A DNA stretch of 64,000 nt, from positions 17,052,001 to 17,116,000 of the forward strand of contig CM075987.1 of NCBI GenBank assembly GCA_038087875.1, written 5' to 3'. Below, piece after piece: positions 9,541 to 19,342 of the stretch. Position numbers and translations under genes: made by a program. The first letter of the stretch is position 1, and each line of letters opens with the position of its first letter. This DNA comes from Malacoraja senta (lineage: Eukaryota). The notes under the pieces were generated by a model. That model saw nothing but the letters and a program-made list of their open reading frames with translations, searched no databases and had not been told where the DNA came from.

Positions 9541-12500
9541 TTCTCCACACCACCCTGGCCACGCACTCATTTCACCATTGCCATCGGGAAGAAGGTACAG
9601 GAGCCTGAAAACTGTAACGTCCAGGTTCAGGAGCAGCTTCTTCCCTACAGCCATCCCTAAGAATAAACATTTAAACCTCAAATAAGCTCAGAACTACAAT
9701 TGACTATTATTGTAGTGTATATATGGTGTGTGTGTGTGTGTGTGATATGTTACATATATGTGTATATATATATATATGTATTTGTATATATGTATTTGTA
9801 TATATGTATTTGTATATATGTATTTGTATATATATATGTATTTGTATATATATATGTATTTGTATATATATATGTATTGTATATATATAGTATTTGTATA
9901 TATATATGTATTTGTATATATAGGTATTTGTATATATATATGTATTTGATATATATATATGTATTTGTATATATATATGTATTTGTATATATATATGTAT
10001 TTGTATATATATATGTATTGTATATATATATGTATTTGTATATATAATATGTATTATATATATGTATTTGTAAATATATATGTATTTGTATATATATATG
10101 TATTTGTATATATATATGTATTTGTATATATATATGTATTTGTATATATATATGTATTTGTATATATATATGTATTTGTATATATATATGTATTTGTATA
10201 TATATATGTATTTGTATATATATATGTATTTGTAATATATATGTATTTGTATATAGTATGTATTTGTATATATATATGTATTTGTATATATATATGTATT
10301 TGTATATATATATGTATTTGTTTATATATATGTATTTGTATATATATATGTATTTGTATATATATTTGTATTTGTATATATATATGTATTTGTATATATA
10401 TATGTATTTGTATATATATATGTATTTGTATATATATAATGTATTGTATATATATATGTATTTGTATATATATATGTATTTGTATATATATATGTATTTG
10501 TATATATGATATGTATTTTGTATATATATATGTATTTGTATATATATATGTATTTGTATATATATATGTATTTGTTAATATATGTATTGTATATATATAT
10601 GTATTTGTATATATATATGTATTTGTATATATATATGTATTTGTATATATATATGTATTGTATATATATATGTATTTGTATATATATATGTATTTGTATA
10701 TATATATGTATTTGTATATATATATGTATTTGTATATATATATGTATTTGTACTACTATATATGTATTTGTATACTATATTCTTTGTATATAATGTATGT
10801 ATATATATATGTATTTGTATATATATATGTATTTGTATATATATATGTATTTGTATATATATATGTATTTGTAAATCTATATGTATTTGTATATATATGT
10901 ATTTGTATATTATAGTATTTGTATATATATATGTATTTTGTATATATATATGTACTTTGTATATATATATGTATTTGTATATATATATGTATTTGTATAT
11001 ATATATGTATTTGTATATATATATGTATTTGTACTATATATATGTATTTGTAATATATATATGTATTTGTATATATATATGTATTTGTATATATATAGTA
11101 TTTGTATACTATATATGTATTTGTATATATATATGTATTTGTATATATATATGTATTTGTATTATATATGTATTTGTATATATATATGTATTTGTATATT
11201 ATAGATGTATATTATGTATTTGTATATATATATGTATTTGATATATATATATGTATTTGTATATATATATGTATTTGTATATATATATATGTATTTGTAT
11301 ATATATATATGTATTTGTATATATATATATGTATTTGTATATACTATATATGTATTTATATTATATATATATTATGTATTTGTATATATATATATATGTA
11401 TTTGTATATATATATATATGTATTTGTATATATATATATGATTTGTATATATATATATGTATTTGTATATATATAATATGTATTTGTATATATATATATG
11501 TATTTGTATATATATATATGTATTTGTATATATATATATGTATTTGTATATATATATATGTATTTAATATATATATGTATTGAATACTATATATGTATTT
11601 GTATATATATATATGTATTTGTATATATATATATGTATTTGTTATATATATATGTATTTGTATATATATATATGTATTTGTATATATATATATGTATTTG
11701 TATATATATATATGTATTTGTCTATACTATATTCATGTATTTGTATATTATATATGTATTTGTATATATATATATGTATTTGTATATATATATATGTATT
11801 GGTATATAGTTATATATGTATTTGTATATATATATATATGTATTTGTATATATATATATATGTATTTGTATATAATATATATGTATTTGTATATATATAT
11901 ATATGTATTTGTATATATATATATATGTATTTGTATATATATATATATGTATTTGTATATATATATATATGTATTTGTATATATATATATATGTATTTGT
12001 ATATATATTATATGTATTTGTATATATATATATATGTATTTGTATATATATATATATGTATTTGTATATATATATATGTATTTGTATATATATATATATA
12101 TGTATTTGTATATATATATATATGTATTTGTATAATATATATATATGTATTTGTACTATATATATATATATGTATTTGTATATACTATATATATGTATTT
12201 GTATTATATATATATGTATTTGTATAGATATACTATGTATTGTATAATATATATATGTATTTGTATATATATAATGTATTGTATATAATATATGTATTTG
12301 TATATATATGTATTTGTATATATATGTATGTGTATATATATGTATGTATATATATGTATTGTATATATATGTATGTGTATATATATTGTATATATGTAGT
12401 ATATATATGTATGTGTATATATATGTATGTGTATATATATGTATGTGTATATATATGTATGTGTATATATATGTATGTGTATATATATGTATGTGTATAT

Positions 12501-13440
12501 ACTATGTATGTGTATATATATGTATGTGTATATATATGTATGTGTATATATATGTATGTGTATAATTTATATATGTATATGTGTATATATATATGTATGT
12601 GTATATATATGTATGTGTATATATATGTATGTGTATATATATGTATGTGTATATATATGTATGTGTATATATATGTATGTGTATATATATGTATGTGTAT
12701 ATATATGTATGTGTATATATATGTATGTGTATATATATGTATGTGTATATATATGTATGTGTATATATGTATGTGTATGTGTATGTATATGTATGTGTAT
12801 GTGTATGTATGTGTATGTATATGTATGTGTATGTATGTGTATGTGTATGTATGTGTATGTGTATGTATATGTATATGTATGTGTATGTGTATGTATATGT
12901 ATGTGTATGTATATGTATGTGTATGTATGTGTATGTGTATGTGTGTGTATGTGTGTGTATGTATATGTATGTGTATGTATATGTGTATGTATGTGTATGT
13001 ATATGTATGTGTATGTATATGTATGTGTATGTATATGTGTATGTATATGTGTATGTATGTGTATGTATGTGTATGTATGTGTATGTATGTGTATGTATGT
13101 GTATGTATGTGTATGTATGTGTATGTATGTGTATGTATGTGTATGTGTATGTATGTATGTGTATGTGTATGTATGTATGTATGTGTATGTGTATGTATGT
13201 ATGTGTATGTATGTATGTGTATGTGTATATTTTTATATATATTTTGTATATGTATATATGTGTGTATATCTATATATATCTATATATATACACACACACA
13301 CACAGACACAGACCTTTTTTTTCCTCTTTCGTTTATTATATTGTTTACAGTGTACTATGTTTACATATTCTGTTGTGCTGCAGCAAGTAAGAATTTCATT
13401 GTTCTATCTGGGACATATGACAATAAAACACTCTTGACTC
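9541..13440 (+). mobile_element. Rex1-type LINE 3' end whose UTR hosts the giant microsatellite
   Basis: HPGHALISPLPSGRRYRSL motif at left, AATAAAACACTCTTGACTC tail at right; splits a minus-strand CR1 3' end. Confidence 0.75.
9725..13310. repeat. ~3.6-kb compound TA/TG microsatellite
   Basis: GTATTT-GT(AT)n units of 18, then 20, then 22 nt, a 16-nt GTATGTGTATATATAT zone, then GTAT/GTATGT mixtures. Confidence 0.98.
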
Positions 13441-14239: not shown

Positions 14240-15069
14240 AATGAATGAATGAATGAATGAATACTTTATTGTCATTATAACATGTAAACATGTACAACGA
14301 AATTAAAAATGCCAACCAGTCAGTGCACCATTCACACATTATCTAAAAGCTAACGATACGTAAAAGAGAAATATCTAAAATAAACAACTAAAATAAATAA
14401 CATGAAAAAAACCCAAGCATAAACACACAACCATACATTCTTCTGTCGATTTCACAGTCCCTTTGGTGTGTAGCGCACCTGCGCTCATTTGGTGGCTACA
14501 TTAAGTGTAGTTATTGCTGTGGGATAAAAACTGTTTTTGAGTCTGTTTGTCCTTGTCCTCATTGTTCTGTACCGTCTGCCTGACGGCAACAGTTCAAACA
14601 GGGAGTGTCCGGGGTGGAAAATGTCCTTTATGATGTTCTGGGATTTTTTGAGACAGTGGGAACTGTGTAAGTTCACCAAGGTGAGGAGAGGGCAGCCGAC
14701 AATCTTCTGGGCGTTGTCAATAGCCCTCTGGAGCGCTTTCCTCTTAGCCACTGTGCAGCTGGTGTACCACACGCATACACAGTATGTTAAGATGCTCTCT
14801 ATGGAGCACCGATAAAAGGATAGCAGCAGTCTCTGGGTGATGTTGTTCTTCCTGAGCACCCTCAGGAAGTTCAGTCTCTGCTGGACCTTTTTCAGCAGCG
14901 CAGAGGTGTTCACGCTCCATGTCAGGTCCTCCTCAATGTGGATTCCCAGGAAGCGGAAATCCGCCACCCTCTCCACACAGTCCCCTCTGATGATTAGTGG
15001 TGTAATGTCCGTTTTCTTCTTCCTGTAATCTATTATGAGCTCCTTGGTCTTTGAGGTGGTGAGGAGCAG
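14240..15069 (-). mobile_element. Rex1-type LINE (continues at ~18530-18850, split by a CR1)
   Basis: FRFLGIHI, ESILTYC and LPSGRRYR motifs; upstream part has [11 protein letters not shown] and KFADDTTVVGLI; (ATTC)n tail. Confidence 0.88.
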
Positions 15070-15312
15070 GTAACAATCTCGGGATTACTGCCTGTACCAC
15101 GCGACAGTGAGAGTAGGAATGGAGCGAGGTGGAGGATAAATGCGTGGCTGAAGGACTGGTGCAGAAGGCAGGGATTCAAATTTCTGGATCATTGGGACTT
15201 CTTTTGTGGAAGGTTCGACCTGTACAAAAAGGATGGGTTGCACTTGAACCTGAGGGGGACCGATATCCTGGCGGGAAGATCTGCAAAGGCTACTGGGGAG
15301 ACTTTAAACTAG
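15070..15312 (+). pseudogene. CR1 ORF1 C-terminus, SGNH esterase-like domain (not in ORF track)
   Basis: Open frame VTISGLLPVPR...INAWLKDWCRRQGFKFLDHW...KDGLHLNLRGTDILAGRSAKATGETLN*; DGLH matches SGNH block V. Confidence 0.85.
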
Positions 15313-18300
15313 AATGGTTGGGGGGAGGGACTCAAATAGAGAATGCTATTAGACAGTGTGTGAGGCAGGAGGCAGAGAAGGAAAGCACTCAGACCCAACA
15401 TGTAGGGGGGAAAGAAGAAAACAATAATAAACAGAGAATAAGAGGTGGTGAGGTTCTTAAATGGGTGAGCAGAGAAACAGAGGGGTGTAAAATGCGGGCG
15501 GAAGCAATAGGTACCAAGGTGAAAGGTAAAAGTGGCAGGCAGACAAATCCAGGGCAAAAATCAAAAAGAGCCACTTTTCAACATAATTGTATAAGGGGTA
15601 AGAGCGTTGTAAAAACAAGCCTGAAGGCTTTGTGTCTCAATGCAAGGAGCATTCGTAATAAGGTGGATGAGTTGAACGTGCAGATAGCAATTAATGATTA
15701 TGATATAGTTGGGATCACGGAGACATGGCTCCAAGGTGACCAAGGCTGGGAGCTGAACATCCAGGGATATTCAATATTCAGGAGGGATAGAGAGAAAGGA
15801 AAAGGAGGTGGGGTAGCGTTGCTGGTTAGAGAGGAGATTAACACAGTGGAAAGGAAGGACATTAGCCTGGAGGATGTGGAATCGGTATGGGTAGAGCTGC
15901 GAAACACTAAGGGGCAGAAAACGCTGGTGGGTGTTGTGTACAGGCCACCTAGCAGTAGTAGTGAAGTTGGGGATGGCATCAAACAGGAAATTAGAAATGC
16001 GTGCAACAAAGGCAAAACAGTTATAATGGGTGACTTCAATCTACATATAGATTGGGTGAATCAAATTGGCAGGGGTGCTGAGGAAGAGGATTTCTTGGAA
16101 TGTATGAGGGATAGTTATCTAAACCAACATGTAGAGGAACCAACGAGAGAGCAGGCTATTCTAGACTGGGTATTGAGTAATGAGGAAGGGTTAGTTAGCA
16201 GACTTGTTGTGCGTGCCCCCTTGGGCAAGAGTGATCATAATATGGTTGAGTTCTTCATTAGGATGGAGAGTGACATTGTTAATTCAGAAACAACGGTTCT
16301 GAACTTAAAGAAAGGTAACTTTGAGGGTATGAGACGTGAATTGGCCAAGATTGACTGGCAATTAGTTCTAAAAGGGTTGACGGTGGATATGCAATGGAAG
16401 GCATTTAAAGACTGCATGGATGAACTACAAAAATTGTTCATCCCAGTTTGGCAAAAGAATAAATCAAGGAAGGTAGTGCATCCGTGGATAACAAGGGAAA
16501 TCAGGGATAGTATCAAAGCAAAAGATGATGCGTACAAATTAGCCAGAAAAAGCAGCATACCAGAGGACTGGGAGAAATTCAGAGACCAGCAGAGGAGGAC
16601 AAAGGGCTTAATTAGGAAAGGGAAAATAGATTATGAAAGGAAACTGGCAGGGAACATAAAAACTGACTGCAAAAGTTTTTATAGATATGTGAAGAGAAAG
16701 AGATTAGTTAAATCAAATGTAGGTCCCTTGCAGTCAGAAACAGGTGAATTGATCATGGGGAACAAGGATATGGCAGACCAATTGAATAACTACTTTGGTT
16801 CCGTCTTCACTAAGGAAGACATAAATAATCTGCCGGAAATAGCAGGGGGCCGCGGGTCAAAGGAGATGGAGGAACTGAGTGAAATCCAGGTTAGTCGGGA
16901 AGTGGTGTTGGGTAAATTGAATGGATTAAAGGCCGATAAATCACCAGGGCCAGATAGGCTGCATCCCAGAGTACTTAAGGAAGTAGCTCCAGAAATAGTG
17001 GATGCATTAGTGATAATTTTTCAAAACTCTTTAGATTCTGGAGTAGTTCCTGAGGATTGGAGGGTAGCAAACGTAACCCCACTTTTTAAGAAGGGAGGGA
17101 GAGAGAAAACGGGGAATTACAGACCAGTTAGTCTAACATCGGTAGTGGGGAAACTGCTAGTCAGTTATTAAAGATGGGATAGCAGCACATTTGGAAAGTG
17201 GTGAAATCATTGGACAAAGTCAGCATGGATTTACGAAAGGTAAATCGTGTCTGACGAATCTTATAGAATTTTTCGAGGATGTAACTAGTAGAGTGGATAG
17301 GGGAGAACCAGTGGATGTGTTGTATCTGGACTTTCAGAAGGCTTTCGACAAGGTACCACATAAGAGATTAGGATACAAACTTAAATCACACGGTATTGGG
17401 GGTTCAGTATTGATGTGGATAGAGAACTGGCTGGCAAACAGGAAGCAAAGAGTAGGAGTAAACGGGTCCTTTTCACAATGGCAGGCAGTGACTAGTGGGG
17501 TACCGCAAGGCTCAGTGCTGGGACCCCAGCTATTTACAATTTATATTAATGATCTGGACGAGGGAATTGAAAGCAACATCTCCAAGTTTGCGGATGACAC
17601 TAAGCTGGGGGGCAGTGTTAGCTGTGAGGAGGATGCTAGGAGACTGCAAGGTGACTTGGATAGGCTGGGTGAGTGGGCAAATGTTTGGCAGATGCAGTAT
17701 AATGTGGATAAATGTGAGGTTATCCACTTTGGTAGCAAAAACGGGGAAGGCAGACTATTATCTAAATGGTGGCCGATTAGGAAATGGGGAGATGCAGCGA
17801 GACCTGGGTGTCATGGTACACCAGTCATTGAAAGTAGGCATGCAGGTGCAGCAGGCAGTGAAGAAAGCGAATGGTATGTTGGCCTTCATAGCAAGAGGAT
17901 TTGAGTATAGGAGCAGGGAGGTTCTACTGCAGTTATACAGGGTCTTGGTGAGACCACACCTGGAGTATTGCGTACAGTTTTGGTCTCCAAATCTGAGGAA
18001 GGACATTATAGCCATAGAGGGAGTGCAGAGAAGGTTCACCAGACTGATTCCTGGGATGTCAGGACTTTCATATGAAGAAAGACTGGATAGACTTGGCTTA
18101 TACTCGCTAGAATTTAGGAGATTGAGAGGGGATCTTATAGAAACGTACAAAATTCTTATGGGGTTGGACAGGCTAGATGCAGGAAGATTGTTCCCGATGT
18201 TGGGGAAGTCCAGGACAAGGGGTCACAACTTAAGGATAAGGGGGAAATCCTTTAAGACCGAGATGAGGAAAAACTTTTTCACACAGAGAGTGGTGAATCT

Positions 18301-18427
18301 CTGGAACTCTCTGCCACAGAGGGTAGTTGAGGCCAGTTCATTGGCTATATTTAAGAGGGAATTAGATGTGGCCCTTGTGGCTAAAGGGATCAGGGGGTAT
18401 GGAGAGAAGGCAGGTACGGGATACTGA
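15303..18427 (+). pseudogene. CR1 ORF2 (AP endonuclease + reverse transcriptase), two frameshifts
   Basis: CLNARSI, GITETWL, MGDFN, SDHN; NYRPVSLTS, LDFQKAFDKV, PQGSVLGP, KFADDT; breaks near 17160 and 17745. Confidence 0.93.
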
Positions 18428-19342
18428 GTTGGATGATCAGCCATGATCGTATTGAATGGCGGTGCAGGCTCGAAGGGCCGAATGGCCTACTCCTGCACCT
18501 ATTTTCTATGTATCTATGTATCTATGTATTCTCTCCACGCCACCCTGTCAGCTGCTCCACCTCATCCCTGTAGGCGTACTCATCCCCCCAGAGATGAGCC
18601 CCACCACGGTGGTGTCATCCGCAAATTTGACAATGGTGTTACTGTGGTGGGCGGGGGTGCAGTCATATGTATAGATGGTGTAAAGCAGGGGGCTCAGCAC
18701 GCAGCCCTGTGGAGAGCTGGTACTGAGGCTGAGGGCCGTGGATGTGTGATGACCCACTCTGACTCTCTGACTGCGACCCGACAGGAAGCTCTTTACCCAC
18801 ATGCAGGTGGTGTGGAAGTCCCAGGTCCCCCAGTTTGTCCACCAGTTAGAAGGATGAGAGGGATCTTATAAAAACATAAACAATTATAAAATAACTGGAC
18901 ACGCTAGATGCAGGAAAAAATGTTCCTAATGTTTTGGGGAGTCCAGAACCAGGGGCCACAGTCTAAAAATAAAGGGGAGGCCATTTAAAACTGAGATGAG
19001 AAAACACTTTTTCACCCAGAGAGTTGTGAATTTGTGGAATTCTCTGCCATAGAAGGCAGTAGATGAATTTAAAAGAGAGTTAGATGGAGCTCTAGGGGCT
19101 GGCTCGAAGGGCCAAATGGCCTCCTCCGGAACCTATTTTCTATGTTTCTAATCCAGAAGATGCAGGATCTTTTCACTCCAAACAGGAAGAAAGATTCTAG
19201 GGGGAGAAAGAGGTGACCGTGGCTGACAAGGGAAGTCAAGGACAGTAAAAACTAAAAGAGAAGGCGTATAACATAAGTAAGATTAGTGGGAAGCCAGAGG
19301 GTGGGGAAGCTTTTAAAGAACAACAGAAGGTAACTAAAAAGG

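Follow-up and report, generated by a model that had tools for sequence, protein, structure and literature searches.

The window analysed here, a stretch of 64,000 nucleotides from Malacoraja senta, carries on its plus strand a 5'-truncated copy of a CR1 LINE (15068-18528, ends judged by eye). What remains of ORF1 is its last 80 codons (15070-15312), which belong to an SGNH/GDSL esterase domain and end in Leu-Asn-stop. ORF2 contributes an APE-type endonuclease domain (15639-16238; Pfam Exo_endo_phos, E 2.2e-13) and a reverse transcriptase together with the C-terminal part of the protein (17161-18427; Pfam RVT_1, E 1.3e-25), and the copy closes with a CR1-type 3' UTR and 8-nt tandem repeats, three units of which occupy 18504-18527, with neither poly(A) nor an LTR. 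The ORF1 fragment matches Pfam Lipase_GDSL_2 with an E-value of 6.6e-7, which lies under the curated cut-off for such a fragment, and the profile of the ORF1 family matches the ZfL2-1 esterase 4C1B (E 1.4e-35). The closest named homologues of the copy come from Leucoraja erinacea (89% for ORF1 and 95% for the endonuclease). The element is a CR1-clade LINE with an esterase ORF1 and with APE endonuclease and reverse transcriptase in ORF2; the CR1 label is based on this architecture and on homology to ORF1s of turtles, lizards and birds, the accompanying tree being a quick one without named CR1 references.

The copy is dead, since it is truncated near 15068 with most of ORF1 missing, lies inside another LINE, and has an ORF2 broken by two frameshifts, near 17157 and 17750. 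The surrounding element is on the minus strand, and the insertion has no clear target-site duplication; the flanks at 14485-15071 and 18528-18865 are the reverse transcriptase region of that LINE, interrupted by the CR1 copy, with short microhomologies and a Pfam ALKBH8_N match that we take to be typical of Rex1-like elements. At about 10000-13300 the window also contains a 3-kb AT-rich low-complexity tract of simple repeats with extreme GC skew.

The ORF1/ORF2 junction in the window and in relatives

ORF1 ends in T TTA AAC TAG, as the first-pass annotation of the window had read it. The slippery heptamer U UUA AAC (15303-15309) lies in the ORF1 phase, is kept in relatives, and is directly adjoined by the UAG stop codon (15310-15312); in the -1 frame the same bases read Phe-Lys-Leu. 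The placement of ORF2 in exactly this frame also held, the frame staying open over 15117-17171, where the earliest ATG in frame lies at 15492. Between the ORF1 stop and 15640 the -1 frame contains no stop codon, versus 10 and 9 in the other two frames. Thus an X XXY YYZ heptamer in the upstream frame is combined with a downstream ORF in -1, the arrangement of canonical programmed -1 frameshifting (PRF). UUUAAAC is the heptamer of coronaviruses, and UUUUUUA, which is found in some of the relatives described below, is that of HIV-1. Downstream lie a GG (15316-17), a GGGGGG tract (15320-15325; hereafter G6), which after its 10-nt spacer is a candidate linear 3' stimulator, and a CCCAAC (15394-99). 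Within the window alone the 10-mer at the junction occurs at chance frequency (4 matches with no more than one mismatch versus 4.27 expected) and no second copy reaches the junction, so that its excess over chance comes only from relatives.

The reading that we favour, with a probability of roughly 0.85, is that LINEs of this esterase-ORF1 CR1 type would make an ORF1-ORF2 fusion by programmed -1 frameshifting. A ribosome at the last two ORF1 codons would hold UUA in the P site and AAC in the A site. Most ribosomes would proceed to the adjacent stop and release ORF1p, and a minority would slip by -1 in tandem and continue through an unstructured linker of 35-110 residues into the endonuclease and reverse transcriptase. 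The fusion would then arise at a fixed low ratio, as in gag-pol, and would presumably serve as the working ORF2 protein.

Relatives were collected by scanning GTDB with an endonuclease-motif pattern that is blind to the junction, which yielded 41 loci, mostly host DNA in bacterial assemblies. An esterase ORF1 end is visible in twenty of them, and 8 break off before reaching that point; L146 has an ORF1 of undefined type, 11 loci carry a different ORF1 or consist of one ORF, and 1 is not a LINE. Comparing the junction across these relatives, a check of the kind that the first-pass annotation had proposed, bore out both heptamer and phase: a canonical heptamer stands at the ORF1 end in 19 of the 20 esterase-ORF1 junctions (14 UUUAAAC and 5 UUUUUUA), against a background of 65 in-phase heptamers among 13,238 ORF2 codons (0.5%), and the -1 frame is open to endonuclease motif I in 13 of the 20, with no in-frame ATG before motif I in 12 of these 13. 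The remaining seven junctions are out of phase or broken, as are 7 of the 18 copies of an invertebrate family, most with visible indels. Conservation is seen at the nucleotide level, as in canonical -1 PRF. The heptamer sequence varies (UUUAAAC, UUUUUUA, AAAAAAC) while its position holds: UUUUUUA sits one codon before the ORF1 stop, and in L146 A AAA AAC is separated from the stop by one codon, ORF2 follows in -1, and another stop immediately precedes the heptamer. Of the 9 non-esterase junctions listed, none combines a heptamer at the ORF1 stop with -1 phase.

The junction loci form seven lineages in a quick endonuclease-region tree without named references, with endonuclease identities of 34-52%; the heptamer is present in 7 of 7 and in phase in 6 of 7, counts that do not represent independent events because the lineages share descent. 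L167, a single copy, has heptamer and G6 one base out of phase and a usable ATG. Related junctions were found in invertebrate-type contigs as well, and one invertebrate family provides 18 copies, with the heptamer intact in 17, G6 in 15, and a -1 frame that reaches motif I without Met in 11. Many GTDB representative genomes contain animal LINE DNA, and one 17.8-Mb assembly holds at least 18 copies of one CR1 family. A metagenome scan with an ORF1 pattern returned one CR1 (L037, sturgeon-like) among the matches listed (114 loci); it carries UUUAAAC, with only 5 open codons preceding. No relative was found in viral contigs (several scans, one of which gave 19 chance loci), in plasmids, in GTDB scanned with an ORF1 alignment, or, beyond the centre genome, among 399 scored genomes of one order. 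Eleven further loci (L178, L180, L182, L184, L186, L188, L190, L198, L204, L209 and L210) were set aside, having esterase matches but no endonuclease past the stop.

Two loci serve as natural controls and are consistent with the frameshifting reading: L163, which the quick tree, built on short rows, puts within the same clade (SH-aLRT 88), has a different ORF1, no heptamer and its own ATG, and L212, a zebrafish-L2-type esterase element, has neither Leu-Asn nor the heptamer. Other junction types were seen besides. In the LINEs L200, L205 and L208 an esterase ORF1 ends in a long tail; ORF2 lies in -1 phase at the ORF1 stop, where a canonical heptamer is missing, and in the tree L200 and L205 group apart. 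ORF1 and ORF2 share one frame, with one stop between them and no AUG before motif I, in L139, L171, L138 (UGA-C) and L155 (UAG-G), junctions that look like stop-codon readthrough in other LINE clades. L145, L169 and L172 have a single long ORF in which a Cys-rich, PHD-like region is fused ahead of the endonuclease.

ORF1 ends, start codons and alternative routes to ORF2

The protein databases contain the same junction. Among the first 26 homologues of ORF1, 23 are unfused, of which 22 end in Leu-Asn and one in Ile-Asn, with variation in the three preceding residues; the remaining three continue in the -1 frame after a slip and read FKL at this position. Wider searches gave 274 ORF1-like proteins, of which 224 could be anchored and 185 end 22-33 residues past the DGLHL motif. 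The last residue is Asn in 153 of the 185 (101 LN, 42 GN), such ends being favoured in these counts because the search profiles included them. A residue whose codons allow only a purine as third base precedes LN in 2 of 101 proteins and GN in 41 of 42 (40 Gln), and after thinning to 55% identity the figures are 1 of 28 versus 5 of 5. This split matches the demands of U UUA AAC and G GGA AAC, where GGGAAAC is read from proteins only, DNA for the Gln-Gly-Asn families having turned up in none of the scans made. Named species whose ORF1 ends in LN include sawshark, rays, sturgeon, eel, elephantfish, poison frog, turtles, alligator, lizards, a snake and the barn swallow. In a further group, seven proteins show Lys-Asn at roughly this position, and their ORF1 continues for some 5-11 residues, an arrangement that would fit A AAA AAC. 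All six slipped database proteins (from ray, skate-type, turtle, anole and invertebrate sources) read FKL-x-x-x-G.

ORF2 could instead be made as a separate protein by termination-reinitiation at an AUG or non-AUG codon, as proposed for L1, SART1 and ZfL2-1, with Leu-Asn kept for the sake of the protein and the G-tract holding the ribosome. We judge this improbable. Reinitiation is a described LINE mechanism in the passages available from PMC3708506 and PMC5009743. Its account of the G-tract draws on the stop codon that directly follows the heptamer, as the distance from this stop to G6 is likewise constant at 7 nt. A protein-level need for Leu-Asn was rejected, since ZfL2-1-type esterases function without it. 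Reinitiation does not predict fixed codons, yet T TTA AA is found in every DNA and slipped-protein case; nor does it predict the coupled switch to Gln-Gly-Asn, a UUUUUUA placed one codon before the stop and followed by a hairpin, or the -1 phase.

Start codons bear on the same question. No conserved AUG overlaps or lies near the ORF1 stop, and none precedes motif I in 12 of the 13 in-phase junctions and in L037, which before motif I has no in-frame ATG and no CTG, GTG, TTG or ACG, the common near-cognate starts. The first Met falls 8-30 residues past the motif-I Asn in L037, L135, L157, L148, L140, L153 and L162. This Asn, at 15639 in the window, aligns with Asn14 of the human L1 endonuclease (alignment to 1VYB/2V0S, E 0.007), presumably an active-site residue; a product begun at the first AUG would therefore lose the first endonuclease strand. 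The absence of an AUG is by itself not diagnostic, because L174, a LINE without esterase whose ORF2 lies in +1 phase with 65 open codons, has neither a heptamer nor an AUG before motif I. Linker ATGs do occur and favour reinitiation: they are present in the window family, L156 (two), L146 (one), L167 and many shark families.

In the window family, the first part of the -1-frame linker (15313-15463) is common to a sister family, which matches the window to 15463 and then runs directly into endonuclease motif I, as seen from loose ends behind 15463 in X1 (10 contigs), X3 (36 contigs) and X21 (307 reads). The window family has about 165 nt more, in frame (15464-15638), and its first ATG (15492-15494) sits inside this extra segment, 180 nt past the ORF1 stop and 49 codons before motif I. 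The ATG is conserved within the family, and the database proteins P0309 and P0310 share its Met. The A-rich linker of X21 shows a net difference of 6 nt (by eye), which keeps the frame upstream of any ATG. Most of the shark and ray ORF2 predictions retrieved have a linker Met at unrelated positions, from a search that can return only proteins with such a Met. Reinitiation could thus add to or replace frameshifting in the window-family and shark/ray lineages. Across 15464-15638 the window family looks chimeric, with the ORF1 and linker of the sister family running in frame into a second linker and endonuclease, and a third linker type joins at 15454 in the sequencing runs matched to the window. 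For the window family, variation between copies was assessed from four sequencing runs. Among the 40 variants listed (a further 114 stand outside this set), none falls in 15282-15323 and none makes a -1-frame stop past the heptamer, which is a weak result.

A third route, from a spliced or shorter RNA in which the UAG would act as 3' splice site and the G-run as splicing element, appears very improbable. In its favour, a YAG with a G-run behind it looks like a splice acceptor carrying an hnRNP H/F site, and TAG stands at the junction in five families. Against it, L167 and the P0022 family have TAA as their stop, the UUUUUUA class has its stop one codon later, and the putative splice site has no pyrimidine tract. 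In X21 RNA no read covered any of the 15 joints listed (16 joints and 792 loose ends lie outside that set), and no common molecule start was found. Reads of X21 are about equal on both strands, and element-specific transcription was not seen.

Sequences 3' of the heptamer

A heptamer without a stimulator gives little frameshifting, and the lack of 3' structure in the UUUAAAC class counts against the frameshifting reading. The first-pass annotation had offered two stimulators for the window, pairing of the G-tract with CCCAAC and a G-quadruplex. The stem is part of the minimum free energy fold, but with z = -1.19 it was equalled in 21 of 200 shuffles; it has no counterpart in other UUUAAAC lineages (z -1.0 to +1.6) and is broken in the X21 sister family (loose-end consensus, by eye). 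Two UUUAAAC lineages have a single nearby G-run, too few for an intramolecular G-quadruplex. Nor did folds computed without pseudoknots show a stem-loop 5-9 nt downstream in the window or the UUUAAAC class, and C-runs, as possible pseudoknot partners, are absent nearby; an Rfam scan returned nothing above the gathering threshold. Accordingly, of what the first-pass annotation had claimed, -1 frameshifting into ORF2 draws strong comparative evidence, over a range far beyond one CR1 family, while the stimulators suggested with it are unsupported.

The relatives point to two other arrangements. In UUUUUUA and AAAAAAC elements, a hairpin with best z of -1.7 to -3.2 begins 8-13 nt downstream; L140 and L156 differ in it by an A-U against a C-G pair (by eye), and it would be the stimulator in these elements. 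UUUAAAC elements are unstructured here. Exactly 10 nt separate the heptamer from GGGGGG in the window, L037, L135, L157 and L148, and in L167 the tract lies at +9 to +14; in this class the unstructured G6 would take the hairpin's part. Bases flanking G6 are unrelated between lineages, and G6 occurs only 1-3 times per 3.5-4.3 kb of these elements. Third codon positions in the tract are G too, so that the constraint acts on the RNA. What is found, therefore, is a conserved linear motif about 10 nt past the shift site with no structure, as in protein-stimulated PRF.

G6 probably acts on the shift, and it is a candidate for a new type of stimulator. More tentatively, it may act through a bound protein, likely at the mRNA entry channel. 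It could also act, the shift itself being real, through an RNA structure, either an intermolecular G-quadruplex or long-range pairing with a pyrimidine motif in the 3' UTR, an idea that we regard as unlikely. In the window, L157, L148 and L168, part of the 3' UTR ranks within the top six duplex partners of G6 (-14 to -19 kcal/mol), and the highest G4Hunter scores are 1.4-1.5 for the window and L148. These duplexes are, however, rich in G-U pairs, were scored without shuffle controls, and rank first in only one of the four elements; they show no covariation, as the Gs never change. G4Hunter values are about 1.0 in L135, L157 and L167. A search for a conserved C-rich partner of G6 found none.

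Relation to known systems and implications

The CR1 junction resembles the canonical -1 PRF of retroviruses, LTR retrotransposons and coronaviruses in that a heptamer ends the structural ORF and the enzyme ORF follows in -1 without a start of its own, and, in the UUUUUUA and AAAAAAC elements, in the hairpin 8-13 nt downstream. It differs in that CR1 is a non-LTR retrotransposon lacking a protease that would release the enzyme, and in that the UUUAAAC class, including the window, has no 3' structure. L1, SART1 and ZfL2-1, for which termination-reinitiation is proposed, share with CR1 a bicistronic LINE RNA from which little ORF2 product is made; they differ in making a separate ORF2p, and the ZfL2-1-type locus L212 lacks the heptamer.

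The closest parallel to G6 comes from PRRSV. According to the part of PMC4937337 consulted, its nsp2 -2/-1 PRF has no obvious downstream structure and depends on a linear C-rich motif 11 nt past the shift site, with a 10-nt spacer and activity at 9-11 nt, and binding of this motif by PCBP and viral nsp1-beta was shown experimentally. The spacing of G6 equals that of the C-rich motif, an analogy only; unlike PRRSV, CR1 has a G6 as its candidate motif, and a heptamer for tandem slippage.

Among LINEs, Dictyostelium TRE5-A and TRE3-A are said in a passage of PMC5911963 to need a -1 frameshift for ORF2; they are likewise APE-type LINEs with a -1 shift, of another clade and with another ORF1, and that passage gives neither heptamer nor stimulator. 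SART1 reinitiates through UAAUG (PMC3708506, in part), L1 ORF2 is thought to start independently of AUG (PMC5009743, in part), and a +1 shift or readthrough has been suggested for Paramecium LINEs (PMC5405496, in part). The term 'CR1' is absent from the full text of PMC5009743. CR1 subgroup 7, type IVB, as described in the accessible parts of PMC4120745 and of a 2026 chordate CR1 survey (bioRxiv 10.64898/2026.01.13.699120), has the same zinc-finger/coiled-coil/esterase ORF1, APE-RT ORF2 and short 3' tandem repeats; in those parts, in contrast to the reading given here, the two ORFs are treated as separate and the word 'frameshift' is absent, as is 'translat' from the main text of the survey. 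Within the portions of the literature searched, which include PMC11835228, bioRxiv 788562, PMC3905857, PMC4255032, PMC2734521 and PMC8392823 and extend to sources other than the CR1 papers of 1997-2003, no report of frameshifting in CR1 was found. We put the chance of an earlier passing remark in Haas 1997, Kajikawa 1997, Poulter 1999 or Kapitonov and Jurka 2003 at about one in three; the breadth of the feature, the heptamer exchange and G6 are unlikely to be in those papers already.

The mechanism of -1 frameshifting is itself known. What is new here is a deeply conserved feature that probably places it in a LINE clade not known to use it, together with a candidate stimulator. The fullest version of this proposal, that CR1 has made an esterase-fused endonuclease and reverse transcriptase by a -1 shift since before the vertebrate/invertebrate split, the shift in most lineages being driven, with no part for RNA structure, by a bare G6 at the entry channel of the ribosome bound by a host G-run protein or by ORF1p, is on present evidence somewhat unlikely to hold in every part. 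Translation of LINE ORF2 is usually explained by reinitiation, and CR1 is the dominant LINE of many vertebrate genomes. If CR1 does use a conserved, gag-pol-like frameshift, annotation of ORF2 would change in reptile, bird, amphibian, fish and invertebrate genomes, where first-AUG models cut into the endonuclease; a membrane-binding esterase would be tethered to the reverse transcriptase; the natural frameshift cassettes known would grow by thousands, each of 40 nt; and G6 would represent a new kind of stimulator. Should the shift also be driven through a protein bound to G6, CR1 would be a case of protein-controlled frameshifting outside viruses, through which the host or the element itself could tune retrotransposition.
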